This document shows, piece after piece, positions 19,501-58,030 of a DNA stretch of 64,000 nt; position 1 is the stretch's first letter, and each line of letters starts with the position of its first letter. Position numbers and translations under genes: made by a program. A model generated the notes under the pieces. The model saw only the letters and a program-made list of their open reading frames with translations, was not told the DNA's origin and searched no databases. Origin of the DNA: Eledone cirrhosa (lineage: Eukaryota); the NCBI GenBank assembly GCA_964016885.1, contig OZ024757.1, positions 1,736,001 to 1,800,000 on the forward strand. The letters run 5' to 3'.

Positions 19501-19640
19501 AAATATAGTTGACATATGTTTATATATAACATAATATAATATAGTTGACATATGTTTATATATAACAGATAATATAATATAGTTGACATATGTTTATATA
19601 TAACAGATAATATAATATAGTTGACATATGTTTATATATA
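16523..19640. repeat. 38-bp AT-rich minisatellite, main block
   Basis: Same unit as 12601-13013, about 80 copies. One further partial unit at 19889-19911. Confidence 0.98.
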
Positions 19641-19889: not shown

Positions 19890-20419
19890 ATAATATAATA
19901 TAGTTGACATAAAATAACATTTAATAGATTGATAACTTTATTAAACTAAAGAGAAAATGTGATAAAAACTAAGACTGTGGCCATATTGGGGCATCATCAT
20001 CATCATCATCATTTACGACCGCTTTTCCCTGCTTGCAAGGGTGAGCACTGTATAATTATACTGGGGCCATGCTGGATCACTATACTTTTTATTGTTTTAC
20101 TGGTTTCAGTCATTAGACTGTGGCCATGCTGGAGTACCACCTTAATATTTATTTTATTCTATTTTATTTGTACTTTCAGGCTTCGACTGAGCAAATTGAA
20201 ATTGTTGAAAAGCTGAGAAATCAAAGGAATTGTTTTTTGAAGGAGAATTGAAGATATTGAGGAGAGACACAGAGAGTGAGTGTGTGACTGATAGAGAGAC
20301 ACAGAGAGTGAGTGAGTGACTGATAGAGAGAGGTTAGAGAGTGATTGAGGGAACAACAAAGAGAGGCAGACTGAGGTTTTTCCATAAAATTGTTAGACAA
20401 GTGTTTCAATTAATGGGTC

Positions 20420-20720
20420 TAAAATATAACAGTTTTAATTAATTAATGTAAAAATAACTGTTTTAATTAATGAGTGTAAAATATAACTGCCATAACTAGC
20501 AATTGTGAAATATAACAGTTTTAATTAATGAGTGAAAATATAACTGTTTTAATTAATGAGTGTAAGAATATAACTGTTTCGGTTAATAATTGTGAAACAT
20601 AAGTTTTAATTAATGAGTATGAAATATAACAGCTTTAATTAATGAGTGTGAATTATAACAGTTTTAATTAAAAATTGCAAAATATAACTGTTTTAATTAA
20701 TGAGTGTAAAATATAACTGC
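20420..20720. repeat. Degenerate ~30-bp AT-rich tandem repeat
   Basis: AAATATAACTGTTTTAATTAATGAGTGT units directly upstream of and overlapping the ORF start at 20700. Confidence 0.85.
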
Positions 20721-21515
20721 TGCAGCCAACAGTTGAATGAAAGACATGACATTATGAAATACATGGAACGGTGTGAAAATAATTCAAAATGGACGGTTGT
20801 GATGTTAATTCTTCTCCTTCTAATGTGTCTTATTGTTCCATTGAAAAGTCTTCAAGCTGTCAATGTGTCAAACATAGAAAAGCCATCTGTGAGTCCATTC
20901 CAACGACATATACAACATTTAAAGGACCTGAAAAGCAAGTTTAGAACCCAACCAAATCGTATGTGGTCTACCCTAAAAGCTAGCACCCATCACATCATTA
21001 CATCAGAAGATCCTGATAGACCAGCTGTGATCATGATGGTTTTACCAAGTAATAAATCCAATCCCATGGCCCTATGTTTAGCCCGACACTTCTCACACAA
21101 CCTCGACAAGGTACTTCTTTGTCACACTACATCTGTTGCTACATACCCTGTCATTGATGGGGCTAAATATGTCAACTATAAAACCAATGAACAGAAATTA
21201 CAATTAGATAACTCCATCCAACGTATTGTTAGACATCACAGTTCAGTAGTAATTAATCACTTAGAGAAACTTGACAGTGAAACTGTCATGTATTTCCATG
21301 GTCTTTGTGACACAACAGAAGCTTTACACAAACGGATTGCTGTCATATTTCTAGTGGAGACACCTCTTGAAATAAAACATGAAATGGAGCTGGCATCGTA
21401 TTTAGGAGGTTTGTGGGATGACATAGACCGCGTTCAAGTAAAACCTCTCCTTGCACGCATTGCTAACAATGTCATATTTTTGAACCAAGATGATAGTTTT
21501 ACAAACTGCCAGTAG
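20700..21515 (+). CDS. TOR1AIP: Torsin-1A-interacting protein (LAP1/LULL1 family): TM helix plus luminal AAA+-like activator domain, probably a terminal exon
   Basis: Hydrophobic segment WTVVMLILLLLMCLIVPL, then family motifs LKSKF.TQ...W, PAVIMMV, ALCLA, IDG, KLQLD, VVINHLEKL, FHGLCD, and C-terminal LLARIANNVI (arginine-finger position). The true start is uncertain. Confidence 0.88.
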   Translation: MSVKYNCCSQQLNERHDIMKYMERCENNSKWTVVMLILLLLMCLIVPLKSLQAVNVSNIEKPSVSPFQRHIQHLKDLKSKFRTQPNRMWSTLKASTHHIITSEDPDRPAVIMMVLPSNKSNPMALCLARHFSHNLDKVLLCHTTSVATYPVIDGAKYVNYKTNEQKLQLDNSIQRIVRHHSSVVINHLEKLDSETVMYFHGLCDTTEALHKRIAVIFLVETPLEIKHEMELASYLGGLWDDIDRVQVKPLLARIANNVIFLNQDDSFTNCQ

Positions 21516-21545
21516 ATGGTGTTGTTTTTGTTATTCACACACAAG

Positions 21546-21760
21546 GGCAGTGGATTGGCCAAATCGGTAGAGTGTCAGAGAAAATGCTTAGCGGCATTTA
21601 TTCTGGATCTTTACGTCCTGAATTCAAATCCCACCAAGGTCTACTTTGTCTTTCATTCTTTCAGGGTTGATAAAATAAAATACCAGTCACATACTGGGGT
21701 CGATGTAATGAATGACCTTTCATCTCCCTCAAATTACTGGCCTTTTGCCTAAATTAGAAA
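21546..21760 (+). mobile_element. tRNA-derived SINE (Meta-domain-like) in the presumed 3' UTR
   Basis: A-box-like TGGCCAAATCGGTAGAG, B-box-like ATTCAAATCC, core CTTTCATTCTTTCAGGGTTGATAAAATAAAATACCAG. Confidence 0.75.
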
Positions 21761-21967
21761 TCCTTATTATTCACACACACACACACACATATATATAATC
21801 TCTCCTTCGTAATCCCGTCTCTATTTTTGTCCTCCTGAAGAAGAGCTGAAGCCCAACATGTCGAACTTTCTTCCTCTTTTTCCATATAAAGCGTGAAACT
21901 ATCTTTGTATCTCTTTTTGTTGTCTCCTTGAAATATAGTTATGTAATAAGCAACATAAGATAATTAT

Positions 21968-22038
21968 TTCATTTACCAAAGGTTTCACGAAGACAGACGA
22001 GCTTGGCACAGACGTCTGCCTTCAATCATCAGAATGAA
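21968..22038 (-). ncRNA. Type I hammerhead ribozyme
   Basis: Minus strand: UUCAUU-CUGAUGA-[UGAAGGCAGACG..CGUCUGUCUUCG]-GAAA-CC UUU GG-UA|AAUGAA. All three helices form. Confidence 0.85.
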
Positions 22039-22573
22039 TTAATTATCTTATGCTGTTTATTACATAACTAAAAAGCTCTGTAGCCTACATAGAGCACTCT
22101 CTTTTCCTTTACCTTTCCTATGGGAAATACTTCAATTATATATATATATGTCGTATTCTATGTGGTTGTGGTGGGGCTGATGATGTTAGGACTCAATATG
22201 TCGTAGGAAAGATGATCACAGCGAGATTAAACGGTGGAGCCAGTAGTTCTTGTGGTTGGTGACCACCGCTTAAGGCTTCCTCGAAGAAGATTCGCCCAGG
22301 TTACAGAGTCATTCACACACGCACACACATATATAACTGAAGAGTGTGTATGTGCATTTAGAAAGCCGTACAATAGAAGTAGGTTAGATTACCAAGGTAA
22401 TAAGTTGGGAGGGAACTGAGAGAGAAAACAAAGGTGGGAGAAGGAAAAGAAAAGGAAGAATAACTGAAAGTTACCTGAGAAATATATCACTATATATATA
22501 TATATATAAAAAACATGAGAAAAAAGAAGAATACTGCGTGGTTTACACATGGGTTTATATATATATATATATA

Positions 22574-23446
22574 CAGGGTGCGGACGATATTTGTTCACAA
22601 GATTACAGTCTAGGAAAAGGTAACACAGTAGTTTCATTTTTTAAGATTTATTTATCAAACTTGGGTCAGTTTGTCTTCATGACTTGTTCTTTCGATCTCA
22701 CTCGATAAACCCACCATTGGCTTTGATGACGGCCTCAAAGCAGCCTCGGAACCGGCTACAGGCCTTCGTCACTGTTCCCCGACTTAGGCCCCTAATGGCA
22801 CTTGTGATCCTGGCCTTCAGATCGTCTTTCGTATTGCAGCTAGATCTGTTGGTGTCTCGTTCCACTGCGCCCCACACAAAGAAGTCGAGGGGGTTGCAGT
22901 CAGGCGAGCTGGGAGGCCAGATGTCAGGTGAAGTGTGGTCGACGAAGTTCTCTGACAGCCAGGCTTGTGTCTTTCTGCTGGTATGGGAGGGCGCTGAGTC
23001 TTGCTGCCACACGTACGTACGGCCTACCTGCAGCTACCTGGTCGATCCAGGGCTTTACTACCTCGCTCAGAACGCGGATGTAGCCCTCAGGGAAGAAGTG
23101 AGGTGGCATGACGTCACCTTGACTGCTGATGACACCTAAGACCAATGTTGTCGCTGGGAACTTTGTCTACATGACTCTAGGCACGTCTTTGGATGAGACA
23201 GCGAACCACCTGTTGTTATGGAAGTTGATCTTCTGGTCTTATTTGTCCTCCTGGCGCAGATTCCAAGAAGAACTCCGTGTCTCTTCCACAAATTTGGAGA
23301 TTCAAAATTATTCATAATCAATTATTCTGAAAATAAATAATGGAAATATAGTCAGTTTTTATGAAGACAAGAGTGACAACGGAAGTAAAAAGAATTTGCA
23401 TAAAATTAGCAGTTGAAAATTGCGAACAAATATCATCCGCATCCTG
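22574..23446 (-). mobile_element. Tc1/mariner DD37D (maT) element, internally deleted
   Basis: TIRs CAGGGTGCGGACGATATTTGTTC / GAACAAATATCATCCGCATCCTG flanked by TA. The transposase remnant QQDSAPSH...WPPSSPDCNPLD has 37 aa between the Asp residues and is frameshifted. Confidence 0.9.
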
Positions 23447-23932
23447 TATATAAGCAGGTATCATCATCATCATCATCATCATTTTACGTCTGCAGGGAAA
23501 AGCGGACATAAAAGGTATATATATAAATATATATAAGCAGGTATATATCATCATCATCATATAAATAAGCAGGTTTATATATCATCATCATCATCTTCAT
23601 TTAACGTCCATTTTCCACGCTATAAACAGGTATTTATATATATATATATAAGCTGGTATTGCACCAAGAATTCTATCACTTCTTTCTGTTCAAACTGGCT
23701 GTAACCGGCTGGTTGTACTTATGTTAAGGTATTGTTCTCAAAATAAATGATATCAAAATCTCATAGATTTGATATTATGTGAAATAATCCTTTACTGTGA
23801 CAATACAATAGTATATATAGAGTAATGTAAATGTTATGTGAGGTAAAGACTTTACTGTGACAATACAATAGTATATATAGAGTAATGTAAATGTTATGTG
23901 AGGTAAAGACTTTACTGTGAAAATATAGTATA

Positions 23933-26900
23933 CTAGCAGTATAGCCCGCCGTTGCTCGAGTTTGTTCATTTGCTATGAAAAGTTACATACAGGTAAACGT
24001 GGCTTGAAAGAGAATAAGATTATCAATTAAGTGCATAAAGCAGTTGAACCGGTTTATTAAAAGTTACGAACCAATTAGCATTTTGGTCAATCAATGATGG
24101 GTTAATAATCTTCCAATAGCGAATTTAGTAGACCAAAGTTGCAAGATGGTGGCCCTGATGCCACTGGGTGTCAGATCTGTCCGCCATGGGTGACCCTACC
24201 AGTTTTCCAGATGGCATATCTCCAACACCTGCACCAACATCTATAGCACCTTTGTAGACGATATTGCGTGTCATCCCTTGAGGAGTGTAAGCAAAAGGTC
24301 TATTCCTGCTCCCTACGCGGGAACAGGCAACATAAAGTTGGCCATGGGAGAAGCCTGGCTCCTCCAAATGGATGTCCGCCACCAACAATGTTTGCCCTTG
24401 TGACTTGTTAATGGACATGGCAAAACATGGTCTCGCCAGAAATCGAACGGGATATCTGTCGCCGAGGGGAAAAGGTTCATCCTTGGAATGAAAACATTCT
24501 CCCCACCCCGTTACAATGGTGGCCTCAATCAAGTGGGGTGTCAGTGACTTGACGACCATGCGAGTACTGTTGCACTGCTTTGGTGGACGCAAGTTCCTTA
24601 TTAGCATAATGGGACAGCCAACCCTAAGCTTAAGAATGTGAGGTGGGAGCCCTGGGGGCTCAAGGGAATTTAATAACTCAACCGGATAATTAACGATATC
24701 GTTGGGGTCTGACGTCCGGTCGATAGATTTGAAGATGGCTCTTCACCGGGAATCTTCTCAATCAGCTGCTCGTTAATAAAATTAACCATGGTATTTTTCG
24801 GAGCAAGGATGGCTCTTTCGCTGAGCCAATCGAGATTTTTAAAGTTAAATGGAAGTCAGGAAAAACTGCTTCCCAAAGGTCAGAAGGGCTGCTCACAATG
24901 TTGCACAGGGAGTCGATTGCTATGCCGCTCTTGTCATCCGCAGGGACATTGCCCTCACCAAGTGCTAAAATGTTCTGAGCAAATGCTGCAGACATGTCAC
25001 CATGCAAATGAGCACGCATATTTGTGCTCAGGTACAAACTCTTCACCTGGAGCCACAACATGGACGACTTAAGGCAGGCACGCACTTCACCAACTCTTGT
25101 CCCTTTGGGGATGACAGGCAGCGTTTGCCGAAAATCCCCTGATAGCAGAAGGGTTACGCCACCCATAGGAGCCGTAGAATCCCTAATGTCTTTCAGGGTC
25201 CTGTTCCAATGCCTCAAAGGCACCCTTGTGTGCCATTGTGCACTCATCCCAAACAATGAGGCAACATTTTTTGAGAACCAGAGCTTCGTGTAAACTCTTG
25301 CTGATATTGCATGTTGGTGTCTCAGTTTTTACTAAATCCAAGGGGAGTTTAAAGGTTGAATGTGCTGTCCTGCCTCCCGGCAGCAAAATAGCAGTGATCC
25401 CGGACGATGCAACAGCCAACGCAATTTTTTTCTCCTGACGAATCTTAACGAGAATCAATTTCGTTACAAAAGTTTTTCCGGTACCCCAGGAGCATTGAGA
25501 AAGTAAATACCCCCAGTCTGATTTTGAACCGCGTCAATGACAGTTAAATAGGCTAACCTTTGGTCCGACAGAAGTTTGGGCTCATTTTCCTCTAAGTATT
25601 GGGAAAGAGATTCGATGTCATATGCTGTTTCCCGCAACAAATCCGGGGCCGTGTTAGCTTCCTCTCTGACGGTTGACGGCAAGCCATACATCGCCAACTC
25701 ACTCCCACCCATGCCAAGGAGGGCGTCCTCGATATCAATGAGTGCCCTGTTGTAGATAATGTCGCTGTAACCAACTTCCACTGAAGTATACTGCAGATAA
25801 GCCAGGTGCAGGAAGTCCTCAGGCATGAAATCTCTGTACTTGACTCAAAGATTTGGGATCACCCAATTCACACTTTTGAAGCAAAATGGCAAAGAGTTCC
25901 CATAGACCTTTAGGTGATTTCAACAAAGCACCCTCTGCTAAAGTGGAATCCCATTGCGAATCATCTTTCAAAAGACCACGCTTAAAGCAGGCTTCCCGGT
26001 ACATATCACATATTTCTCCGTCAACAGTTTTGAGGTCCTGAAAACTTTGTGGGCCTACAACTTCATGCAGAAGAAGGCGGAGATGAAAACACTCATGCTG
26101 ACTTGGGGGCACAGTGTAAACCCTTCCAAGATAGCTGTCAAATTTTACACCAGGATGTCTTTCAACAGCCTGACCTGACTTCTTCGCACCCAAGTGTTTT
26201 TCGACCATATAAAGTAGGATGGAACCTGGGGGTACACAATTATTTGCGCAAATGTGTCGAACTGGCAAAGTTTGAAGAAACCCGTCAGAGTGGTCTCTTT
26301 CGGATCGGCGGCGGTTTGGTCCGTAAAGTAAACCCTTTGCTCATTTTCCAAATGTACCGCAAGCTGTACGGTGGCGTGGTGCCATTGGTGTAGGGGTAAA
26401 CCAAATAGGCGCCAAAAAGCTTCATTGCTACTGATGTACCGCCCCGCCAGGTATTCTGTGACCTCGTCCCTGCTATTTTCTGCTTGAAATACGAACATTG
26501 CGGCATCAGAGCCCTTATTTACATATTTGCATATGTATTTTATCGACTTGACGGAGTTGCAAAACTCAACGTTGATGTGGGCGTTGAACATCTTCAAGAG
26601 AAGCGAGCAGTAAGGGACCACCCATCTATTGTCGACTTGACTCCCCTTTACTGTTGTGGTGAAGCCACCGTTCTCGGGCCGTCTCCGCCTGTACAGGGGG
26701 TACCCGTCGCCACCAGTCTGAGTCTGGTCAACAAATTTTTGGGGGGTATCCCTTACTGCATGACCCCCCCCCCCTTTCAGACACGTGTGATCCTCATTAG
26801 GACCCGACGCACACGGACCATGTTAGCTTTGATGATGTCATGTAATTCCTGGTCAGTTGCTGGGTTAGGGATTTGAGCTGAAATGAAGCTGTCTATGGCA

Positions 26901-27592: not shown

Positions 27593-28479
27593 TATAGAGT
27601 AATGTAAATGTTATGTGAGATATGTGTGGTAAAGCCTTTACTATGACAATATAATAGTATATATAGAGTAATGTAAATGTTATGTGAGGTAAAGCCTTTA
27701 CTGTGAAAATACAATAGTATATATAGAGTAATGTAAATGTTATGTGCGGTAAAGCATTTACTGTGAAAATACAATAGTATATATAGAGTAATGTAAATGC
27801 TATGTGAGGTAAAGTCTTTACCGTGAAAATACAATAGTATATATAGGGTAGTGTAAATGTTATGTGAGGTAAAGGCTTTACTGTGAAAATACAATAGTAT
27901 ATATAGAGTAATGTAAATGTAATGGGAGATATTACGTGAGGTAAAGCCTTTACTGTGAAAATATAATAGTATATATAGAGTAATGTAAATGTTATGTGAG
28001 GTAAAGTCTTTACTGTGATAATAGTATATATAGAGTAATGTAAATGTTATGTGAGATATTACGTGAGGTAAAGCCTTTACTGTGAAAATACAATAGTATA
28101 TATAGAGTAATGTAAATGTTATGAGATATTACGTGAGGTAAAGCCTTTACTGTGAAAATACAATAGTATATATAGAGTAATGTAAATGTTATGTGAGGTA
28201 AAGTCTTTACCGTGAAAATACAATAGTATATATAGGGTAGTGTAAATGTTATGTGAGGTAAAGGCTTTACTGTGAAAATACAATAGTATATATAGAGTAA
28301 TGTAAATGTAATGGGAGATATTACGTGAGGTAAAGCCTTTACTGTGAAAATATAATAGCATATATAGGGTAGTGTAAATGTTATGTGATTTAAAGCCTTT
28401 ACTGTGAAAATACAATAGTATATATAGATTAATGTAAATATGTGAGGTAAGGCCTCATGTAAATATTATGTGAGGTAAC

Positions 28480-30987
28480 GCCTACGACAGTAAAGAGGAA
28501 CAGATAGAGACATTTAACGTAGAAGAGAACTGGGAGTTCCTAAAAAATAATTTACTAGAGGCGACGGATGAGGTCTGTGGCTGGAGTAAGACCTCAAGCA
28601 GGGGGAGAGTGACTTGGTGGTGGAACAATAAGGTAGATGAAGCAGTTAAGGCCAAGAGACAGGCATGGAAAGAATGGAAGAACGGGGGGAGCAGGGTACA
28701 TTACATAGAGACCAAGAGGGAAGCTAGGCGACAAGTATACTTAGCTAGGAGGGAAGCAGAGGATAGAAAATACAAGCATGTTTTACAACGTGAGGACCAG
28801 AAACAGGAGGTATTCAAGATTGCGAGGCAGTGTGTCAGAGATAGTTGTGATGTCATTGGAGAGAAGTGTATCCGGAATGATAAAGGTGAGCTTGCCCTCA
28901 CAAGTGCTGAGAAGAAAGATGCATGGAAGAGTCATTATGATAGATTACTAAATGAGGAGAATGCATGGGAAGAAGAGACCCTACCCCAAGTAGACCCTAT
29001 AGAGGGACCAGCAGTACAAGTCAGCAGCAGCGTAGTAAGTAAGGCAATCAAAGATATGAAGATGGGGAAGGCAACCGGTCCATCGGGTATAGCTGCTGAG
29101 ATGCTGAAGGCATCTGGGTCTGTAGGTCACACTATAACCACACGTATCGTTAACCAGGTAATACTAGAAGGGGCCATACCAAAAGATTGGTGCAGTAGCA
29201 TCATTGTCAACTGCTACAAAGGCAAAGGCGATGCACTAGATAGAGGAAACTATAGAGGTATAAAGTTGATGGACCAGGTCATGAAAGTAACAGAAAGAGT
29301 TATAGCACAGCTGATTAGGGACCGGGTGAATATAGACGAGATGCAATTTGGGTTTGTACCAGGAAGAAGCACCACTGATGCCCTCTTCCTTGTGAGGCAA
29401 TTACAGGAAAAGTACCTAGCTAAAAGTAATCCACTCTACTTGGCATTTGTCGACCTTGAGAAAGCCTTTGACAGAGTTCCACGTGCTGTAATCTGGTGGG
29501 CTCTTAGAAAACTAGGAGTAGATGAATGGCTTGTGAAAGCGGTACAAGCCATGTATAGGGGAGCAGTCAGCAAAGTTAGGATTAGCAATGAGTATAGCGA
29601 GGAATTTAGCGTACAGGTTGGGGTCCACCAGGGCTCTGTTCTTAGCCCTCTCCTGTTCATCATAGTCCTGCAGGCAATAACGGAGGAGTTTAAGACCGGA
29701 TGCCCATGGGAACTCCTGTATGCTGATGACCTCGCACTCATAGCTGAATCTATGGTAGAACTAGAGAATAAATTCCAAACCTGGAAGCAGGGACTAGAGA
29801 GAAAGGGTCTCAAAGTCAACATGACCAAGACTAAGGTCCTTGTAAGTAGACGAGAAAACAGAACCCAGATCCCCTCGGGGAAATGGCCTTGCTCAGTATG
29901 TAGGAAAGGTGTAGGTAGGAACTCCATTCTCTGCCCCAAATGCAAACAATGGGTACACAAGAGATGTAGCGGGATCTCAGGAAGCTTAATTAAGAATGTA
30001 GGATTCACATGCAGCAGCTGTGCTGAGACAGCAAGCAGCAAACAGCCACAGGAAACAAGTACCACCAATCTCTGGGTGGGCCCTGTAGAAACAGTAGACA
30101 GCTTCTGCTACCTAGGTGACCGAATTAGCAACGGAGGTGGGTGTTCAGAAAGTACAATAACTAGGGTAAGAACGGGATGGAAGAAGTTTAGGGAACTACT
30201 ACCACTGCTAGCTGCAAAAGGCTTCTCCCTCAGAATGAAAGGCAGACTGTATGATGCGTGTATCCGAACAGCGATGTTGCATGGTAGTGAGACCTGGGCG
30301 CTGAAGGTGGAAGACTTACGTAGATTAGAGAGAAACGAAGCCTGCATGCTCCGATGGATGTGTAACAGTAATATACGTGAACGACAAAGCATAAATGAAT
30401 TGAGAGAGAGACTGAGCATAAGAGGAATCAAAAGCTGTGTGCAGGAGAGGCGGTCGCGCTGGTATGGACATGTGATGCGTATGAAGGATGACAGCTGCAT
30501 AAAAAGGTGCAGAGCACTAGAAGTTGATGGAAACCGCAGAGTGGGGAGACCCAAGATGACCTGGGATGAGGTGATAAAAGCCGACCTTACCCAATTACAC
30601 CTCTCAAAGGTGATGACACACGACCGTGACTTCTGGCGTCACGCAGTAATACAGAGTACCCGACCTCCCATGGGTACATGCTGAAGCATATAAACAATAT
30701 GCCCCCACACCCCCCACCGCAAGGTGGTCGTGGAGGTGCCACGGCAAAAAAGCACCCAGCCCACACTGTAAAGTGGACGTGTAGGCGCCACGAAAAAGCA
30801 CCCAGCACTCACTGTAAATGAGGTTGGTGTTAGGAAGGGCATCCAGCTGTAGAAATCAAGCCAGATCAGTTCCTGTATGAGCAAGGCATGGTCAGCCGAC
30901 CAGACACTGCACACAACAGGACAACCCGTCTAACCCATGCTAGCGTGGAAGAACGGACGTAAAACGGTGATGATGATGATGATGATG
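28480..30987 (+). mobile_element. RTE-clade LINE, 5'-truncated, intact RT ORF (28609-30684)
   Basis: RT motifs YKGKGD..NYRGIKL, AFVDLEKAFDRV, GVHQGSVLSP, LYADD. Internal C4HC3 finger. 3' UTR ending in (GAT)n. Confidence 0.95.
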
Positions 30988-35570: not shown

Positions 35571-36470
<900 letters not shown>

Positions 36471-36606: not shown

Positions 36607-37846
36607 ATGAATATAGACATAGAATATTCGAAAATATTCTGTATGTTTATAATAAACATTTTGAAGACCTAATCGCTATAGAATAGAATACGTCACGTAT
36701 TACAATTAGATTCTCGATAAAAGCAAGGGAAGTAATCTACGCGTTTCATTCTTATTAGAAATCTTCAGGACTACATATCCAGTGCTTTTATCGAGAATGA
36801 CACAGCTAGAGACTTATAGAATACTTAGCTGTGTACAGAAACTGGTTTGAAAGAGCGGTTGCCGGTCCGGCAGAAATTAGAAATTGGAATAAATGCTCTG
36901 AAATAGCGATATATATGTGAATATAGACATAGAATATTCGAAAATATTCTGTATGTTTATAATAAACATTTTGAAGACCTAATCGCTATAGAATAGAATA
37001 CGTCACGTATTACAATTAGATTCTCGATAAAAGCAAGGGAAGTAATCTACGCGTTTCATTCTTATTAGATTACTTCCCTTGCTTTTATCGAGAATCTAAT
37101 TGTAATACGTGACGTATTCTATTCTATAGCGATTAGGTCTTCAAAATGTTTATTATAAACATACAGAATATTTTCGAATATTCTATGTCTATATTCACAT
37201 ATATATCGCTATTTCAGAGCATTTATTCCAATTTCTAATTTCTGCCGGACCGGCAACCGCTCTTTCAAACCAGTTTCTGTACACAGCTAAGTATTCTATA
37301 AGTCTCTAGCTGTGTCATTCTCGATAAAAGCACTGGATATGTAGTCCTGAAGATTTCTAATAAGAATGAAACGCGTAGATTACTTCCCTTGCTTTTATCG
37401 AGAATCTAATTGTAATACGTGACGTATTCTATTCTATAGCGATTAGGTCTTCAAAATGTTTATTATAAACATACAGAATATTTTCGAATATTCTATGTCT
37501 ATATTCACATATATATCGCTATTTCAGAGCATTTATTCCAATTTCTAATTTCTGCCGGACCGGCAACCGCTCTTTCAAACCAGTTTCTGTACACAGCTAA
37601 GTATTCTATAAGTCTCTAGCTGTGTCATTCTCGATAAAAGCACTGGATATGTAGTCCTGAAGATTTCTAATAAGAATGAAACGCGTAGATTACTTCCCTT
37701 GCTTTTATCGAGAATCTAATTGTAATACGTGACGTATTCTATTCTATAGCGATTAGGTCTTCAAAATGTTTATTATAAACATACAGAATATTTTCGAATA
37801 TTCTATGTCTATATTCACATATATATCGCTATTTCAGAGCATTTAT

Positions 37847-37851
<5 letters not shown>
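36607..37851. mobile_element. Retrozyme-like / PLE pseudo-LTR array: 310-nt non-coding unit, ~1.5 copies (-) plus ~2.5 copies (+), one HHR per unit
   Basis: Identical units with period 310 (37341 to 37651). HHR GUAGUC-CUGAAGA-U UUCU AAUA AGAA U-GAAA-CGCG-UA|GAUUAC at 36732-36774 (-), 37341-37383 (+) and 37651-37693 (+). Flanked by (TA)n. Confidence 0.85.
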
Positions 37852-37943
<92 letters not shown>

Positions 37944-38348
37944 TCTTTAAGTCGTTTGGAAGCCTCGACAATGCAGATAGGTAAATCTCCGGGTAACAAG
38001 ATCCGGTGGTGGAGAGAGAGGTGTAAGTGGGTGTACGTTGAGATACGTGGTGTGTAAAGATGTGTAAATGTGTAGAGAAAGAAGGGAAGAGTATAAAGGA
38101 TAAAATAAAATAACAACACAAGAGAGAATTACCTTGGGAGAGATTTAATAGTCCCTATATATTTCGGATTCACATCCATCAACTGGGGTTTTTGTTCCGG
38201 GGTAAAGGTTGTCTGTCGGACAGGTGCGAAACGCGTCCTCGAGGACGCGTTTTGCACCTGTCCGACAGACAACCTTTACCCCGGAAAAGTGCTTCCAATC
38301 TACTGTAAAACTCATTCTTTGACATAATCATTGAATATTGTTTAACAA

Positions 38349-38449: not shown

Positions 38450-40790
38450 GAATATGTGATGGGAGAGAGAAAATCCTCAACGCTCACATGATGATGTGGA
38501 CTGACATCCTAAAGCCAAGCAGACGCACTGTCAAAAACTTCCAGGCGTCTAACAATGGCATACCACCTTTGTATGGGCTCCGCAAAGACCATAAGACAGT
38601 CGACGACCCGACGACAGGACCACCAACAAGACCTGTATGCGGAGCAAATATAGCTAGCAACTACAGGATCTCCTACTTCCTCTCAATGGTTATATGCCCC
38701 ATAATCAAGATGTCCCCAGATGTATGTGACAGTACAGAAGACCCTCCTCAGCAGAATCAGTGAGTGCAACAAAAACAAAAACCTATCCAACTGCATAATA
38801 GGCAGTATGGATGTGGTATCACTGTACCCATCCATTAACATTGATTTTGCTGTGGAAAAATGTGTGGAGATGATCATTGAGAGTGAGGTGGAGTTCTGCG
38901 ACGTCGACACAGACGAACTGGGCCTCCTACTTAGACTTACCAACGACACTGACTACCTAGACAGCCATGACTTAGATGTTTCTGCCCCAGTAGACCCATA
39001 AGAGATAGACCCCCCACCATAACCTCAATGGCAAAAAAGACTCCCATGGGAAGGTGAATTGGGTGGACCAAAGCTATACGGACCCCCCAAAACAATGATC
39101 AGGTAAGAAAAATGGTCGCACATGCAATAGGGGCTAGTATCAAAACTACCCTAAAGGGCCACATATTCAAATTGAAAGAGAAGATCTACACCCAAAATGA
39201 GGGAGCAGCCATTGGCGTCAGCATAGCTGGTGACGTTGCCAACCTTTTTATGGTATGATGGGAAAGGAGACTCAAAGATCTCTTGATGAGAGCTCCATAG
39301 ACCTCATCATGTACTCTCGTTGCGTAGACGACATTAATATAGTAATAAGGCCATCCTCACAAGAGAGTACTAACAAGTATGATTTAGAATGTAGCACAAT
39401 GGAAAGATCCAGCAGATAGCTAACTCCATACACCAGAGTATAACTGTAACTATCGACTACCCTTCCAAACACCCTAACAGTAGACTACCTGTATTAAACA
39501 TGGAACTCTGGATTAACACTATAGACGAGAGAGCCCAAATTCTCCACCCACACTATGCTAAACCCATGGCCCCCAAATACCTGATACTAAAAAACTCAGC
39601 AATGTCCAGTAGTGCTAAATTTAATATTCTGATCGCAGATTTGGTACGAGTGATGAAGAATGCGTCCCGCATGTGCGACCCAACAGAAATGGAAAGACAC
39701 ATCCAACACTTCATCAACCGCATGCAGCTCTCTGGCTACAACCAAAGAGACAGAGTCAGAGTATACGAAGGAGCCACGGAGAAGTATAAGACCCTCATAG
39801 AACTGGACATGAAAGGAATTTGCCCATTATACGGGAGCAAATCATGGAATAGCTTAGATAGGACTAGACATAAGATAGGGAAAGCCACCTCATGGTACGA
39901 CAACCAGAGATACCAGAGTGTCATGTTTGTGGACGCTACCCCTGGAGGGAAATTAGCTAACCAGTATAGAAAGGCCCTGAGAAAGACCCACTTAAAGATT
40001 AAGGTGGTAGAAAAGCCAGGAACCACCATAAAATCCCTGATCAGCAAAACCTACCCTTTTAAGAAAACCCACCGTACTAATAGGAAATGTATCATATGCA
40101 AAGTAAACCCCCGGATAAACTGTATAACTAGAAACGTAGTCTATAGCATAAGATGTACAGAGGGTACTTGCAGAAACATGACAACAACATACATAGGCGA
40201 GACAGCTCGTAGCATAGGTGAAAGGATAAACCAACACTGGGGGGAACTAAAAGGATGAAAAAACGGTTCAGTACTATACGAACATACCAGACAACAACAC
40301 GACGGTAACATAGACAACATAGAAATTAGAATAATATCTAAACATAGAAATGACCCAGCAGATAGGCAAATCAGAGAGGCTAGCGAAATAGAACTTAGAA
40401 GGCCAAGGCTAAACAGAAAAAAGGAATGGAATAACAACAACACCCAAACAAACAATACTGACCTAAGAGAAGTATAAATAAATAAATAAATACATACACA
40501 AGCACAATAACAACAAACACATATAAACACACACTAGTAAACTAAGATAGAATACAATAACCAATACACAGTCACCCAAACATGAACACTATACACACAT
40601 GCAAACGCATGCGCAGAGAAGACAAAAAAAATAAATAAATAAATAAACAGACTAAATAAAGATGGCGTAGGCATACAATACAACAGGAGGAAACACTATA
40701 GCACCACTGACAATGTTGCAGATGTGCAACGAAAGAACTTTGTTAGACTATATAACATTCCATAAAGTATACAGCTAATATCTAATACTT
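38450..40790 (+). mobile_element. Penelope-like element (Neptune-like): RT plus GIY-YIG pseudogene
   Basis: PPLYGLRKDHK..TRPVCG, GSMDVVSLYPSI, QNEGAAIG, YSRCVDDI (frameshifted RT). Cys-rich linker and NVVYSIRC..C..YIGETARSIGERINQH endonuclease. HHR-like motif in the 3' end. Confidence 0.9.
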
Positions 40791-42604: not shown

Positions 42605-42700
42605 CCTATTAAATTAAATATAACCTCTACATATATATATATATATATATATTGATTACATCTTAACCATTTAACATCTTAGGGTATGTCATGTATCATT

Positions 42701-42757
42701 ATATTTTGTCTGACGAGGACGTACTGTTGTACATCCGAAATATGTATAATAAAATAT
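42701..42757 (+). ncRNA. Type I hammerhead ribozyme
   Basis: AUAUUUUGU-CUGACGA-GGACGUAC UGUU GUACAUCC-GAAA-UAUGUA-UA|AUAAAAUAU, with a 9-bp helix I. Confidence 0.85.
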
Positions 42758-42931: not shown

Positions 42932-43179
42932 CATAAATATATATATATAAAAATAAAAAGGTGGAAGGGGTATTCAAATAGTTGGGAATACAACAAATAA
43001 TAAATAAAGGTATAAATGTTTATAGCTGATTTAGAGCACTCAACAGTTCCTGTAACAAATAATCAATGAAAAAAACATTAAATAACTCTGTATGTAATTA
43101 TATATATACATACATATATATACATGCACACACACACACACAACCATATACATACAAATATATATATATAGAGAGAGAG

Positions 43180-44480
43180 AGAGTATAACTGTAACTATCG
43201 ACTACCTGTATTAGACACGGAACTCTGGATTAACACTATAGACGAGAGAGCCCAAATTCTCCACCCACACTATGCTAAACCCATGGCCTCCAAATACCTG
43301 ATACTCAAAAACTCAGCAATGTCCAGTAGTGCTAAGTTTAATATTCTGATCGCAAACTTGGTACAAGTGATGAAGAACGTGTCCCGTATGTGCGACCCAA
43401 CAGAAATGGAAAGACACATCCAACACTTCATCAACCACATGCAGCTCTCTGGCTACAAACAAAGAGACAGAGTCAGAGTATACGAAGGAGCCACGGAGAA
43501 GTATAAGACCCTCATAGAACTAGACATGAAAGGAATTTGCCCATTATACAGGAGCAAATCATGGAATAGCTTAGATAGGACTAAACATAAGATAGGGAAA
43601 GTCACCTCATGGTACGACAACCAGAGATACCAGAGTGTCATGTTTGTGGATGCTACCCCTGGAGGGAAATTAGCTAACCAGTGTAGAAAGGCCCTGAGAA
43701 AGACCCACTTAAAGATTAAGGTGGTAGAAAAGCCAGGAACCACCATAAAATCCCTGATCAGCAAAACCTACCCTTTTAAGAAAACCCACCGTACTAATAG
43801 GAAATGTATCATATGTAAAGTAAACCCCCAGATAAACTATAAAACTAGAAACGTAGTCTATAGCATAAGATGTACAGAGGGTACTTGCAGAAACATGACA
43901 ACAACATACATAGGCGAGACAGCTCGTAGCATAGGTGAAAGGATAAACCAACACTGGGGGGAACTAAAGACGAAAAAACGGTTCAGTACTATACGAACAT
44001 ACCAGACAACAACACGACGGTAACATAGACAACATAGAAATTAGAATAATATCTAAACATAGAAATGACCCAGCAGATAGGCAAATCAGAGAGGCAAGTG
44101 AAATAGAACTTAGAAGGCCAAAGCTAAACAGAAAAAATAAATGGAATAACAACAACACCCAAACAAACAACACTGACCTAAGAGAAGTATAAATAAATAA
44201 ATACATACACAAGCACAATAACAACAAACACATATAAACACACACTAGTAAACTCAGATAGAATACAATAACCAATACACAGTCACCCAAACACGAACAC
44301 ACATCAAACAAAACACTATACACACACGCAAACGCATGTGCAGAGAAGACAAAAAAATAAACAAATAAATAAACAGACTAAATAAAGATGGCGTAGGCAT
44401 ACAATGCAACGGGAGGAAACACTATAGCACCACTGACGATGTTGCAGATGTGCAACAAAAGAACTTTGTTAGACTATATA
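43180..44480 (+). mobile_element. Second, 5'-truncated copy of the Neptune-like PLE (GIY-YIG ORF 43283-44023)
   Basis: Highly similar to 39435-40752. Flanked by microsatellites. Confidence 0.9.

Positions 44481-49234: not shown

Positions 49235-49237
<3 letters not shown>
48528..49237 (+). mobile_element. RTE LINE 3' fragment
   Basis: Matches about 30274-30987, with a (GAT)n tail. Confidence 0.95.
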
Positions 49238-49325
<88 letters not shown>

Positions 49326-49327
49326 TG

Positions 49328-49364
<37 letters not shown>

Positions 49365-49376
49365 GTATTTATATAT

Positions 49377-50210
49377 AATTAAGTTAAAAATGTACATCCA
49401 CATATGTATACTGAAATACTAGTATGCATATGAATACACACACGTGTACATATGTAGATGTACCGAGTTTTTCACTGGTCACTTTACTGTGAGTGTCCAG
49501 CTATTCTGTATGTAAACACACAGACAAACCGGTTTTCTGGAGAATAGAGGAAAGGTGTTTCCTCAAAAACCAGTATGACTCTAAAAACCGGTTTGTCTGT
49601 GTGTTTACATACAGAATAGCTGGACACTCACAGTAAAGTGACCAGTGAAAAACTCGGTACATCTACATATGTACACGTGTGTGTATTCATATGCATACTA
49701 GTATTTCAGTATACATATGTGGATGTACATTTTTAACTTAATTGTTTAAGCGTCAGTCATACAAAAGTGAGTTACAAACGAAACGAAATTTAATTTCGTT
49801 TCGTTATTTGTTTTTATCGTCTCCGTTGAACCGGTACGTACTCACGCTCTATGCAAATTAGTCTGCCCACTACTAATTTTCATAGAAAAAGCATATAACG
49901 ATATGTGCTTTTACGATTCTCTAGAAAGGCCGGAAGATAGGTAAATATTGCTGATGAGATGTAACAACATCGAAACTAGTCCAATATTCCTTGTCTGGCT
50001 TTCTGGAGAATAGAGGAAAGGTGTTTCCTCAAAAACCAGTATGACTCTAAAAACCGGTTTGTCTGTGTGTTTACATACAGAATAGCTGGACACTCACAGT
50101 AAAGTGACCAGTGAAAAACTCGGTACATCTACATATGTACACGTGTGTGTATTCATATGCATACTAGTATTTCAGTATACATATGTGGATGTACATTTTT
50201 AACTTAATTA
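49377..50210. mobile_element. HHR-bearing non-coding unit (466-nt period) with 5' inverted copy
   Basis: 49534-49743 repeats at 50000-50209. 49377-49536 is the inverted 3' end. Flanked by (TA)n. Confidence 0.8.
49944..49988 (+). ncRNA. Minimal type I hammerhead ribozyme
   Basis: AAUAUUG-CUGAUGA-GAUGU AACA ACAUC-GAAA-CUAG-UC|CAAUAUU. Perfect helices I and II, palindromic ACUAGU helix III, GUC site. Confidence 0.9.
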
Positions 50211-50217
50211 TATATAA

Positions 50218-50725
<508 letters not shown>

Positions 50726-52334: not shown

Positions 52335-55238
52335 ATACCAGAAGACGTGACAGAGTATCTGTTGTAAACACTAAATCCCTCCCCCATGAAGAATGCACCT
52401 CCCAACATAGACTGATAATTAGCGACCTCATAGTCAGGACGAGACGTACTAGACAGCAGAAGAGGACTATCCTCAGGAGAAAAATATGGAAGCTAAAGGA
52501 TCCCACAGCCAGAAATAAATTTCAAAGCATATTACTTGATGCTTTCGACAGTAAGGAAGAGCAATTAGAGTCGTACAAGGTAGAGGAACAGTGGGAATTC
52601 CTCAAAGCAAACCTGCTGATGGCGGCAGATGAAGTCTGTGGCTGGAGCAGGCCTGTAGGCAGGAGGAGAGTAACATGATGGTGGAACAGTAAGGTGGAGG
52701 GGTCAATCAAGGCCAAAAAGCAGGCTTGGAAAGCATGGCGGGATGGGGGAAGTAGAGAAGACTATCAAGTGGCCAGGAGGGAAGCTAGGAGACAAGTGTA
52801 CTTCGCAAGAAGTTAAGCAGAGGAAAGAAAGTTCAAGCATGTTCTACAACGCAAGGACCAAAAACGCGAGGTGTTCAGGATTGCTAGGCAATGTGTCAAG
52901 GAAAACCGTGATATTGTCGGGGAGAAGTGTGTACTTAACGATGATGGCATACTTGCCATCACTGACGCTGATAAGAAGGTAGCTTGGAAGTGTCACTACG
53001 AAAGGCTACTAAATGAGGAGAATAAATGGGAGAAAGACAGTCTCCCCCACATCAACCCAATAGAGGGACCAGCAGTGTTAGTCGAAGGTAGTATAATAAG
53101 TAAGGCAATCAAAGATATGAAGACGGGTAAGGCGGCTGGGCCTTCAGAAATAGTTGCTGAGATGCTGAAAGCCTCTGGTACGGTGGGACACACCATGGTC
53201 ACCCGGATAGTAAACCAAGTCATACAGAATGGGGTTGTTCCGAAGGACTGGCGTAGCAGCATCATCGTTAACTGTTACAAGGGTAAAGGAGATGCCCTAG
53301 ATAGGAGTAACTATAGAGGCATTAAATTAATCGACCAGGTCATGAAGGTCACGGAAAAAGTAATAGCGCAACTAATCAGAGAAAGAATTGATCTAGATGA
53401 AATGCAGTTCAGGTTTGTGTCAGGCAAAAGTACCACAGATGCTCTTTTCATTGTACGACAACTACAGGAGAAGTACCTAGCTAAAAGTAAACCCCTATAC
53501 TTAGCTTTTGTCGACTTGGAGAAAGCCTTCGACAGAGTCCCCCGTTCCATTATCTGGTGGGCTCTTAGAAAACTAGGTGTTGATGAATGGCTTGTGAGAG
53601 CTATACAAGCCATGTATAAAGAAACAGTCAGCAAGGTTAGAATTAACAACGAATATAGTGAAGAGTTTAGCGTAAAAGTTGGTGTCCATCAGGGCTCTGT
53701 TCTTAGCCCCCTACTATTTATTATTGCCCTTCAGGCTATAACAGAGGAGTTCAAGACTGGCTGCCCATGGGAACTCCTATACGCGGATGATCTAACGCTC
53801 ATAGCTGAATCAATGGCCGAGCTAGAGAAGAAATTCCAAACATGGAAGCATGGCCTAGAATCAAAAGGCCTTAAAATTAACCTGGCTAAGACTAAAGTTC
53901 TAGTTTGTAGGAAAGAAAATAACGCACCGGTCCCTTCCGGGAAATGGCCATGCTCAGTGTGTAGGAAAGGCGTAGGTAGAAACTCCATTTTATGTCCCAA
54001 ATGCAAAGTATGGGTGCATAAAAGATGTAGTGGGATCACAGGTAAGCTAACTAAGAACACAGATTTTACATGTGCCCGGTGCTCTGGTGCAATAAGTAGC
54101 AGCAAGTGCCCACAAAATACTGGCTCTTTCAATTGCGCAGAGGGTTCTATAGAAATAGTGGACAGCTTCCGTTACCTGGGTGACAAAATCAGCAGTGGGG
54201 GAGGGTGCTCTGAAAGTACAGTAGCTAGAGTCAGAACTGGATGGAAAAAGTTCAGGGAGCTTATACCACTATTAGCCGCTAAAGGGTTCTCCCTAAAAAT
54301 GAAAGGCAGGTTGTATGATGCCTGCATACGAACAGCAATGTTGCATGGCAGTGAGACCTGGGCATTGTGTGCAGAGGATATACGCAGACTGGAGAGGAAC
54401 GAAGCTTGCATGCTCCGCTGGATGTGTAATAGTAATATACGTGAACGGCAAAGCATAAACGAACTAAGGAAAAAATTAGAAATAAGAGGGATCAGATGTT
54501 GTTTACTCGAGAGAAGGCTACGTTGGTATGGTCATGTGATGCGCATGAAAGACGACAGCTGTATAACAAAGTGCAGGGCAATAAAGATAGATGGTAGCCA
54601 CGGAGTAGGCAGACCCAGAAAAACCTGGGACGAGCTGATAAATTCCGACCTCACACACTTACACCTCTCCAAGACAATGTCACTGGACCGAGACCTTTGG
54701 CGGTACTCAGTAACAGAGAAGACCCGCCTTACCTAAATATAAAGTAAAACCTACTACAGTCAGTAGGCATCTCTAACAAAATACACCCCCGTCCCACCAC
54801 CCCCACCCCATCCACACCGCCCCTTTCAATGCAAAGTTATGTTGGTGCCACAACATCCAGGCCGAAACAAATGAGATCGTGTACGTGTCACAACAAAAAA
54901 CACACAGTCCACGCTGTAATGTGGCCGTGTAGGCAACACGGTAAAAACCTCCCAGTCCCACACTGTAAATGTGGTTTGTGTTAGGAAGGGCATCCAGCTG
55001 TAGAAAACACGCCAGACAGTCCACGCTGTAATGTGGCCGTGTAGGCAACACGGTAAAAACCTCCCAGCCCCACACTGTAAATGTGGTTGGTGTTAGGAAG
55101 GGCATCCAGCTGTAGAAAACCCGCCAGACAGTCCTATGCGAGCAAGACAACCACTCTAGCCTCAAGTGGGAAAACCCCCGTCCAAACCCATGCAAGCGTG
55201 GAACATGGACGTTAAACGATGATGATGATGATGATGAT
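52335..55238 (+). mobile_element. RTE LINE, second family, 5'-truncated (ORF 52871-54736)
   Basis: Full RT motif set including LYADD, C4HC3 finger, internally repetitive 3' UTR and (GAT)n tail. Stop and frameshift upstream. Confidence 0.95.
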
Positions 55239-55244
55239 ATATAT

Positions 55245-56515
55245 ATGAATTTGTTTAGCAAGATTCTTTATCTGAAAACGTGTGTTGAAACCGATATTGT
55301 TATACTTTGGGAGGGTCATGTTGCCAATAAGAAACACACGCATCAGTTGCTTTCACTTCAATTTATTTTTATAAATTTAGGAATTTATAAATTTCCGGTT
55401 GGTTGGTTGGTTCCACAACCAGATGGTTGTTTATATATTGTCAAAGTTCTTTCGTCACACATTCTATGACTTCTTCAGTGACTGGGGATTCTTTTCTTTG
55501 TTTTTGTGCCTCTCCTTTGTTCTGTCCTACGCCATCTCGTTTCTGTGTGAATGTTGTGTGCTCAGTCTGCGCATGCGCTACATCCGGGTGTTTGTGTGTG
55601 TTTATATTCGTTTATTTATTTGTTTATTTACATGTTACTGGTTCGTTGTTTGTTCTATGTGTGTGTGTGTTTTCATTTTGTCCTTAATTGTAAGTTGTGA
55701 TGTTGCTGTTCCACTCATGTTTTTTATTTAATTTTGGTTGTAATTCTTTTATGTTTATTGCCTCTGTTATTTGTCTAAACATTGCGTCTTTTCTGTGTGT
55801 GAGATTCTATTTTTATTTCTATGTTCTCTAATTTACCCTTATGTTCTATTTTAGCATGTTGGTGGAGTACAGATGATTCTTTTTTATCTTGAAGGTCTCG
55901 CCAGTGTTCATTTATCCGTTCTCCTATACTACGAGCTGTGTCACATATGTACACTATATTCTTATCTCTACATTGTCCTTCAGTACATCTTATGCTATAT
56001 ACTACATTTCTAGTTTTACAGTTAATATGGGGGCTTAATTTACAGGTTATACATTTCTTATCTATACAGGGAGGTCTTTGAAAAGGGTATGTCTTGCTAA
56101 TAAGTGTTTTTATGGAGGTACCTGGTCTTTCTACTATCTTAATATTGAGTTTATGTTTATCTAGGGCCCTTCTAAATTTGTAAGCTAATTCACCTCTAGG
56201 GGTTGTATCGATGAGCATTACACTCTGGTATTTATTGCTATCATCCCATGAGTTTATTCTATTAGCCTTATTCCTAGTATTAGCCTTATTCCTAGCTGGG
56301 ACAAAGAAAAGAATCCCCAGTCACTGAAGAGGTCACAGAATGTGTGACGAAAGAACTTTGACAATATATAAACAACCATCTGGTTGTGGAACCAACCAAC
56401 CAACCGGAAATTTATAAATTCCTAAATTTATAAATTTATTATAATAAATTGAAGTGAAAGTAACTGGTGCGTGTGTTTCTTATTGGCAACATGACCCTCC
56501 CAAAGTATAACAATA
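55245..56515 (-). mobile_element. PLE 3' fragment (GIY-YIG ORF 55775-56218) with inverted pseudo-LTR
   Basis: NVVYSIRC..IVYICDTARSIGERINEH. 56300-56515 is an inverted copy of about 55296-55502. HHR GUCA-CUGAAGA..GAAA-GAAC-UU|UGAC at 55440-55482 (-) and 56320-56362 (+). Confidence 0.85.
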
Positions 56516-56539
56516 TATATATATATAGAAAATATATAT

Positions 56540-57390
56540 ATAGAAAAGAGGACAAAACTCTAATTCCGTCAGGGAAATGGCCGTGTTCGATATGCAGAAA
56601 AGGAACTGGCATAAATTCTATAAAATGCACACAATGCAGATCCTGGGTACACAAGAGATGTAGCGGGATAGCAGGCAAACTAACAGGTAGGGAGAAATAT
56701 GTATGCAGTAGATGTACAGGGAAATTAGACAGTAGAAGTCGCACTGATAGACACATTTTTGAAATGCAAGAGGGCGCTATAGAAGTGGTGGATAGCTTCC
56801 GGTACCTAGGAGATCAGATTAGCATGGGAGGAGGGTGTTCCAAGGCCATAGTATCTAGAATAAGGACGGGTTGGAAGAAGTTTAGGGAGCTGCTTCCTCT
56901 GTTGACGAAGAAGGGTTTCTCTCTGCATACGAAAGGCCGGTTGTATGATGCCTGTGTGAGGAGCGCGATGCTGCATGGTAGTGAGACATGGGCAGCAACT
57001 GCAGAGGATATGCGATGGCTGGAGAGAAATGAGGCAAGCATGCTCCGTTGGATGTGCAGTGTAAATGCGCGTGAACGACCCAGCATAAATGTGTTGAGAG
57101 AGAAACTGTGTCTGAGAGGGATAGAATGTAGTGTATGGGAGAGGAGACTGAGGTGGTATGGACATGTGATGCGCATGGAGGATGACCGATGGGTGAAGAA
57201 GTGCCAGGAATTGCCAGTTGAAGGAAGACGTGGTAGAGGTAGACCACGAAAAACATGGGCGGAGGTGGTGAGAACAGACCTCAGATCATTGAAGCTCACG
57301 GTGGAGATGACGAGGGACCGTGGCGAGTGGAGAGATGCTGTGCTGAATAAGACCCGTCCCACCCTTGCAAGAGGGAAAAGCGGACATAAA

Positions 57391-57427
<37 letters not shown>
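56540..57427 (+). mobile_element. RTE LINE, third family, 3' fragment
   Basis: C4HC3 finger plus RTE C-terminus. The (GAT)n tail is almost abutting the ORF end. Confidence 0.92.
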
Positions 57428-57428
<1 letters not shown>

Positions 57429-57432
57429 ATAT

Positions 57433-58030
57433 ATATGAAAGACATAAAATAAGAAAATTATAAAAATTAACTTACTTACTAAAATTTCACTCCAACTAAT
57501 TAGTTTCTGAAAGGGAATAAACATGGTTTCCGAAGGAACGCATGGAGAAAGCCTTTCGTCATCAGGGAAGTCTATTCTCAGCTAAGTTCCCAGGCAATGC
57601 GTGGACACAAGGAACTTATACAAAAATAATTCAGAGGATGGAAAAAAGCAAAGCGTGGACTAAGTTCCAAGACATTGAAAAAATCACTGCCTGCTTGGTC
57701 GGTTGCAAAGTCAAAAGAATCAATCACGTGACATTGAGGTTAATCAGTGAGGTGTTAAGAAGACAGCAGCCAAACCATTACTATGAACTATAGTATCAGT
57801 TTATGCGTTCCTTTGGAAACCATGTTTATTTCCTTTCAGAAACTAATTAGTTGGAGTGAAATTTTAGTAAGTAAGTTAATTTTTATAATTTTCTTATTTT
57901 ACGTCTTTCATATAATTGTTCTGCATCCCCTTGCATTGAACCACAAAGTTACTAAGACAAAACCTATATATTTGCTAGCATAGGTATGCACCTGTATATA
58001 CATGTTGGTAGATATACTAATTCTTTATAT
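57433..58030. mobile_element. Probable PLE pseudo-LTR pair in inverted orientation
   Basis: 57433-57542 is inverted relative to 57803-57912. Minus strand has a CUGAUGA..GAAAC core at about 57520-57563. Confidence 0.6.

Follow-up and report, generated by a model that had tools for sequence, protein, structure and literature searches.

The insertion analysed here lies in a 64,000-nt window of Eledone cirrhosa DNA (contig OZ024757.1, positions 1,736,001 to 1,800,000; coordinates below are those of this whole stretch), between two (AT)n tracts, and has a period of 466 nt. Its features are collected in Table 1. Nucleotides 49534-49743 are identical to 50000-50209 (0 mismatches over 210 nt), and the direct arm thus formed, 49534-50209, is 676 nt long, or 1.45 units. 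Together with the 160-nt inverted arm, three copies are present within 49377-50209, and they are identical wherever they overlap. The two arms meet head to head through a 3-nt microhomology. These results agree with a preliminary description of the locus, made from the letters alone, which had proposed about 1.45 direct units with an inverted 3' end, no open reading frame, and a first unit that begins about 18 nt past the position equivalent to the cleavage site and lacks its own ribozyme. The longest stop-free stretch in the element was 60 codons, indicating that it is non-coding. A second copy was not found elsewhere in the 64-kb window, and no contig bridging the junction of the inverted and direct arms was present among the pieces listed.

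Table 1. Features of the 466-nt insertion and its flanks
Feature	Positions	Strand	Basis or remark
Left (AT)n microsatellite flank	49237..49376	.	49340-49376 mirrors 50210-50246
Inverted arm, 160 nt, 3' end outward	49377..49536	-	Reverse complement of 50050-50209, no mismatch
TTT microhomology at the head-to-head joint of the arms	49534..49536	.	3 nt
5'-truncated first unit, pseudo-LTR-like, without ribozyme core	49534..49743	+	Starts 18-21 nt past the cleavage-equivalent position
One full 466-nt unit, non-coding, strongly self-paired as a predicted circle	49744..50209	+	
'Tail' between the short and long 3' ends, about 71-74 nt	49744..49817	+	Contig loose ends; inverted long-end arms
Octamer-like ATGCAAAT (49851) and TATAA (49894), upstream of the ribozyme; candidate internal promoter	49851..49898	+	Motif positions
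Hammerhead domain with predicted extended stem I (49916-49950 pairs with 49982-50011)	49916..50011	+	Predicted fold
Type I hammerhead, palindromic ACUAGU helix III, GUC triplet	49944..49988	+	Descriptor, Rfam, compensatory change
Proposed 'second core': 3' strand of extended stem I (50003-50011), hairpin (50013-50030), start of a helix (50039-50046)	50003..50041	+	Predicted fold
Right (AT)n microsatellite flank, putative priming side	50210..50365	.	

The 466-nt unit has a G+C content of 36% and carries one type I hammerhead ribozyme (HHR), and its head-to-tail joint was observed both in the locus and in public contigs. As a monomer circle, the unit 49744-50209 was predicted to fold with -154.5 kcal/mol (z -12.5 against 100 shuffles) and 66% of its bases paired. 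The tail contains a 13-bp hairpin at 49777-49805; this insertion is without the tail at both of its ends, the short end of the family being 50209, equivalent to 49743. Octamer-like, TATAA and CCGGAAG words occur within 49851-49936, 5' of the ribozyme, as a possible internal promoter. Satellite 2 of newts has an snRNA-type promoter, which offers a parallel to these motifs.

The hammerhead consists of a 7-bp stem I (49944-49950/49982-49988), the CUGAUGA core (49951-49957), a stem II closed by a hexaloop (49958-49971) and then GAAAC-UA-GUC, with cleavage predicted after 49981. All parts of a type I hammerhead, i.e., the core CUGANGA, GAAA and NUH with stems I, II and III, are present. A strict descriptor of the motif matched none of 2000 dinucleotide shuffles. 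The Rfam model Hammerhead_HH9 was matched over its whole length including the loops (38.9 bits, E 3.9e-8), although the score is below the gathering score of 52, and an Rfam search of the whole window at the gathering cut-off listed no hammerhead. Among family copies, stem II showed one compensatory pair, the sole one of its kind: 49959 A>T with 49970 T>A, which occur together in a contig of run X4 and account for 44% and 32%, respectively, of the depth in run X1. The GUC hammerhead recognised earlier at this position is therefore supported, although the wording 'textbook minimal' is not. In canonical metazoan type I hammerheads, helix III is short and its small loop palindromic, a build that hinders cleavage of the monomer but works as a dimer, whereas the minimal ribozymes (min-HHR) of Penelope-like elements (PLEs) are without helix III and loop 3 and have a helix II of 7-8 bp with an unpaired 5' base and a helix I of 4-5 bp (PMC4209133). 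The ribozyme at 49944-49988 has a helix I of 7 bp plus an internal loop, a helix II of 4-5 bp and a weak, palindromic helix III, for which self-pairing of ACUAGU was calculated as -6.2 kcal/mol. By the definitions of PMC4209133 it is a canonical metazoan type I hammerhead. With a single ribozyme, this copy alone could not release an RNA of unit length.

In the summed depth of X1 the cleavage triplet was GUU in about three quarters (223,362 of 295,067), the GUC of this copy being the minority form. GUU is a weaker cleavage triplet. In the X4 contig, it occurs together with the swapped stem II pair.

Directly downstream, a decayed second core had been proposed. The letters are indeed present, with CUGGAGA at 50003-50009, a 7-bp hairpin at 50013-50030 and then AAAAACCAGUA, but no stem I is formed at the GUA (0 pairs), and two invariant bases, A6 and G12, are altered. 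In the fold predicted for the circular monomer, 50003-50011 lengthens stem I by pairing with 49916-49924 (probabilities of 0.89-1.0), CUGGAGA itself pairing with 49918-49924 at a probability of 1.0, and 50039-50046 pairs with 49755-49762. The stretch 50003-50041 is thus probably not a working ribozyme motif and, by this model, would be an extension of stem I. That it is the relic of a second hammerhead of the PLE type is improbable: a loose descriptor, fitted post hoc, matched 0 of 2000 shuffles, and the 7-bp stem, with its G-C pair at the base, looks like helix II of min-HHR (PMC4209133), but in addition to the missing stem and changed bases its helix III is not palindromic (duplex -0.2 kcal/mol vs -6.2 for the real hammerhead), its letters are used by other predicted helices, and no variants at or above 3% were listed at 50003-50045 in the family contigs, including none that would restore the core.

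Data on the family came from public contigs of unrecorded kind. In run X1, 1176 contigs matched the unit; all 30 bins were covered, with depth within one order across the unit, and the head-to-tail joint 50209>49744 was present. Family pieces reached depths of 9,000-25,000, compared with 10-18 at the flank junction of this locus, depth not being equal to copy number. Two fixed 3' ends were observed, about 71-74 nt apart: the short end at 50209 and the long end at 49814-49818. Departures from the unit at 49816-49818 were seen in nine contigs of X1, and in five of these the sequence continues as (AT)n (7 of 39 loose ends listed). The short end (49370-49379) is the exit point of other contigs, and inverted arms beginning at the long end occur at two contig junctions (both from 18 of 20 loose ends listed). 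Copies extending 5' into PLE coding sequence, which would speak against a separate family, were not seen among the 7 of 39 loose ends listed; the upstream sequence was non-coding and was joined to the unit's own 3' end.

Parts of the unit occurred in 20 of the 24 runs listed, under 17 organism codes, which does not in itself establish a range beyond organism A; outside organism A, contigs from X4 and X5 were compared. One 26-nt pattern of the unit was matched in neither metagenome nor viral contigs (0 each). Raw Hi-C reads of X23, sampled at about 1/100 and too sparse to serve as a test, contained 0 reads of the unit. X5 has a single contig of 495 nt, and another run of the same sample has next to no words of the unit. 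This contig closes on itself (465 + 30) but was rejected as a circle because a tandem array gives an identical graph loop and the kind of run is unrecorded; its four A>G changes were rejected as editing, three of them occurring in X1 too. A joint of 'opposite strands' in X9 was rejected as an inversion junction, as it is ordinary unit sequence.

The layout of the insertion equals that of PLE insertions, and most PLE copies are 5'-truncated (PMC8557442); the repeats might then be truncated terminal pieces (pLTRs) of an autonomous PLE and not a separate non-autonomous family. We consider this very unlikely, as the unit closes head to tail without coding sequence, depth stays within one order over the whole unit, and the ribozyme is canonical, those of metazoan PLEs being mostly minimal variants (PMC4209133). 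An open reading frame for reverse transcriptase (RT) with GIY-YIG was not found in the 466-nt element. Within the window, the PLE-like coding stretch 43172-44020 scored 0.94-0.95 against clusters in which 18-27% of the members carry GIY-YIG, which is a lead only; Pfam gave no family for 16 of the 24 window frames, including this GIY-YIG-like one. Relatives of it occur at 39476-40276 and 55856-56278, the protein identity between copies being 92% and 57%. Between the 466-nt unit and the PLE-like remnants of the 64-kb window, no common sequence was found beyond AT-rich bits.

Two further hammerhead-like motifs were noted. One lies at 42710 (42698-42757), near broken PLE-like frames with a CxxC linker and GIY-YIG-like words. 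The other, on the minus strand at 50366-50480, has its core at 50464 and a long stem II; about 55 nt separate its end from the (AT)n tract that also holds the insertion, so that two ribozyme-bearing elements lie on one microsatellite. Upstream of this motif is a decayed frame with the word PDGLN, which is typical of PLE endonuclease ends.

PLEs with an endonuclease (EN+) are described as having partial tandem copies, a head-to-head inverted pLTR, an optional tail and microsatellite targets (PMC8557442, PMC3846280). The element shares with them a truncated direct copy before the full unit, a microhomology junction to an inverted 3' end, a hammerhead in the repeat, an AT-rich microsatellite target, with (AT)n behind the long end in five contigs (7 of 39 loose ends listed), and, in the family though not in this tailless copy, two fixed 3' ends split by a tail. 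It differs in the absence of an RT-EN frame, in a longer tail (about 71-74 nt vs 30-40 bp in PMC8557442 and 31 in PMC3846280), in its canonical rather than minimal ribozyme, and, at this locus, in a mirrored 37-nt flank instead of a direct target-site duplication. Internal fixed starts of reverse transcription and AT-rich cleavage were shown in vitro for PAc (PMC11167929), and an active pair of autonomous and non-autonomous PLEs inserting in microsatellites has been reported (PMC9977147). Insertion into (AT)n by the endonuclease and reverse transcriptase of a PLE acting in trans is likely.

The neighbouring element at 36607-37851 has a unit of 310 nt. It resembles the 466-nt element in its partial tandem and inverted 3' end, its (AT)n target and a hammerhead with palindromic helix III; however, the sequences are unrelated (only 12-nt chance matches, E 3.6), the flanks of the 310-nt element are not mirrored, and its ends are one short (left) and one long (right), about 26-35 nt apart. 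The start of its direct arm coincides with the predicted GUA cleavage site and falls in a 4-nt microhomology; its inverted arm continues beyond that site as far as stem II. As the units are unrelated and the layout is common to both, the earlier suggestion of an independent family inserted by the same machinery is supported.

At the 466-nt insertion, both arms end at the same base, 50209, and the 37 nt outside the two ends (49340-49376 vs 50210-50246) are mirror images of each other, including a non-repeat AAATAC interruption (GTATTT/AAATAC). Beyond these 37 nt the flanks diverge and run into different unique DNA. The flank junction 49356-49395 was recovered as a separate low-depth contig in three of four runs compared, the three coming from one sample, with depths of 17.9, 10.3 and 12.9. 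This depth of 10-18, against 9,000-25,000 for the family, indicates that at least one genuine copy of the flank junction exists and that the family as a whole does not end there. An assembly artefact at the mirrored left end is most unlikely, since the junction occurs in three runs, from a single sample, and the flanks lead into different unique DNA; nevertheless, assemblers are troubled by inverted PLE repeats (PMC8557442), and the two flank junctions are identical, so that short contigs cannot separate one copy from two.

The left inverted arm and the mirrored flank are, in our view and with fair confidence, best explained by snap-back of the cDNA during insertion. Tandem copies elsewhere would be transcribed, pairs of ribozymes would excise 466-nt monomers, and ligation would convert these into circles. 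An enzyme would nick the (AT)n on the right and begin copying at the short fixed start, 50209; copying would make one lap, crossing the closed ribozyme junction, continue for another 210 nt and stall at the predicted extended stem I (50000). From the geometry, the 3' end of the cDNA may have annealed via AAA/TTT to the primer-side copy at 50050, and the snapped-back cDNA may then have copied 160 nt to 50209 and 37 nt into the flank before rejoining the left side in (AT)n. Priming on the nearer copy (49584) would have extended into 49744 and not into the flank. With a circular template, the primer-side 210 nt would be the part displaced and single-stranded on the second lap, provided that the RNA is not removed promptly. 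Among R2 insertions, one documented class of junctions arises when the 3' end of the cDNA snaps back onto the cDNA itself or onto target DNA close by (PMC11371274), and self-priming has been proposed for the inverted repeats of PLEs (PMC3846280). Classical twin priming on one RNA was rejected, as it predicts a direct arm starting beside the priming point of the inverted arm (49744), whereas the actual start is 50000.

Alternatively, both cut DNA ends could have been primed independently at the same short start, the flank palindrome being pre-existing or arising from later template switching between the inverted arms. In vitro, PAc cuts either strand and extends it with the same start sites (PMC11167929), which favours two-ended priming in general; other insertions of the family, with inverted arms from the long end (two junctions, 18 of 20 loose ends listed), fit it as the usual route, as does the 310-nt neighbour, in which a short end is combined with a long one. 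Interruptions of palindromic form are also found in these (AT) microsatellites. Such palindromes are nevertheless rare: in the AT tracts of the window, those running through at least two interrupted steps are centred at 14 of 916 positions, and those through at least four, as at this locus, at 2 of 916. A later fold-back would also occur more easily onto the copy 47 nt away than onto that 513 nt away, and the nearer would not have copied the flank. Independent priming of both ends is on these grounds rather unlikely here. The snap-back explanation, for its part, draws on a single locus and a microhomology of 3 nt; a pair of short ends is in itself nothing unusual where the tail is optional, as in EN+ PLEs (PMC3846280), and a preference of the endonuclease for palindrome centres would void the figure of 0.2-1.5% (2-14 of 916).

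The direct arm exceeds one unit and passes through an intact ribozyme, which indicates that the template was either a partly uncleaved multimer or a closed (re-ligated) circle. The element had earlier been said to be templated by a cleaved RNA, and this part of the proposal was not established: the direct arm of the neighbour does start on its cleavage site, but the present arm crosses an intact ribozyme and other starts in the family are spread from +1 to +76. Six of these are at 49991 (the least sure, the contig being short on its other side), 50004, 50017, 50020, 50040 and 50058, i.e., +9 to +76 (18 of 20 loose ends listed); further starts are at 49983 (+1; X1, 7 of 39 loose ends listed) and 50034 (X4). 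The count leaves out row 49425, a deletion variant, and rows 49370-49379, which are 3' ends or tandem joints. The chance that either of two arms starts within 0-21 nt of the site is about 9%.

One possibility, which we hold to be less than probable, is a linear multimer with a ribozyme-made 5' end, copied to its end, with 18-21 nt lost at joining. The microhomology-bound start of the neighbour on its site would fit, as would the clustering of starts, none of which falls at 50059-50209 among the 18 of 20 listed (P 0.009 after down-weighting of positions hidden by rare alleles of this copy), and R2 templates show slight 5' loss near a ribozyme-made end (PMC11331408). However, the starts extend over 76 nt without a peak at the site, the P value of the clustering rises to 0.09 should both remaining rows of the 20 fall outside, and the listed starts cover mostly the downstream side of the site and scarcely the upstream side. 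Furthermore, the start zone is strongly paired, and stalling therefore predicts the same pattern as a cleaved template, and for PAc cleavage is unnecessary for insertion (PMC11167929). A linear multimer is a proposal about the template alone and can be reconciled with snap-back.

A circular RNA as template is given less confidence than snap-back itself. Unlikely on present evidence is the full combination, in which a Penelope-type enzyme would have reverse-transcribed a circular RNA in rolling-circle fashion and left the mirrored flank as a genomic trace, the snap-back having skipped an identical copy 47 nt away. If it were true, inverted PLE arms would form by two routes that could be counted genome-wide, two-ended priming with a tail at one end and snap-back with no tail and a mirrored flank. 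The locus suggests a simple count: should snap-back truly operate, mirrored flanks are expected wherever both arms share one end. A young high-copy family such as this one offers many natural insertion records.

The element is very probably a copy of an animal non-LTR retrozyme. Like these (PMC7229834; bioRxiv 10.64898/2026.07.22.740005), it is a non-coding tandem unit of a few hundred bases with G+C below 50%, one type I HHR per unit and a strongly self-paired predicted circle, with PLEs in the same genome; its weak palindromic helix III resembles that of the axolotl HHR_Amex1, whose efficient cleavage requires a dimer. Points against this assignment are the Rfam score below gathering, the GUU triplet in most of the family depth and the single HHR of the locus, two ribozymes being the criterion of the 2026 preprint (Li, Clavereau, Pollet). 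An autonomous partner was also not found in the 64-kb window, the unit matching the PLE-like sequences there only in AT-rich bits. Expression and circles of retrozymes were demonstrated in PMC7229834 and the 2026 preprint; those of the 466-nt element are putative. The portions of the retrozyme accounts covered here (Cervera and de la Pena 2020; the 2026 preprint) mention neither inverted arms nor fixed ends, tails or targeting of (AT)n. That retrozymes originate from PLEs and are mobilised by them has already been argued (bioRxiv 10.64898/2026.07.22.740005), copying of retrozyme circles by PLE enzymes has been proposed and not shown (PMC4209133, PMC7229834, bioRxiv 10.64898/2026.07.22.740005), and how PLEs build tandem and inverted repeats is called open (PMC8557442, PMC11167929). 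The junction resembles the R2 snap-back 5' junctions, in which the cDNA 3' end primes on cDNA or nearby target before joining and leaves an inverted segment (PMC11371274, PMC11331408), but R2 represents a different enzyme family in an engineered system, and the present case is deduced from one natural locus. No description of the 466-nt family or of mirrored flanks at PLE insertions was found in the literature covered, chiefly listings and the opening lines of abstracts of openly accessible papers in addition to the works cited. The element belongs to a known kind of animal mobile element and, as a retrozyme copy alone, is ordinary; its new feature is the common end of the arms with the 37-nt mirrored flank.

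Several other features of the window were recorded. A near-perfect, G+C-rich hairpin of 85 nt lies at 38199-38283, 350 nt from the 310-nt element; its Rfam match to MIR7486 probably reflects the hairpin alone, and the Rfam miRNA matches as a whole were discarded, being explained by hairpins and AT repeats. In two cases a PHD finger follows a reverse transcriptase frame; these and a third PHD piece are located at 28474-30684, 52817-54736 and 56464-57438. Pieces of a PIF1-like helicase at 24125-25328 on the minus strand may be a Helitron remnant, and a plus-strand frame at 20697-21515 has a weak-context match to LAP1_C. Compound AT microsatellites made of palindromic units, e.g., ACAC(AT)3GTGT, occupy 35593-36451.
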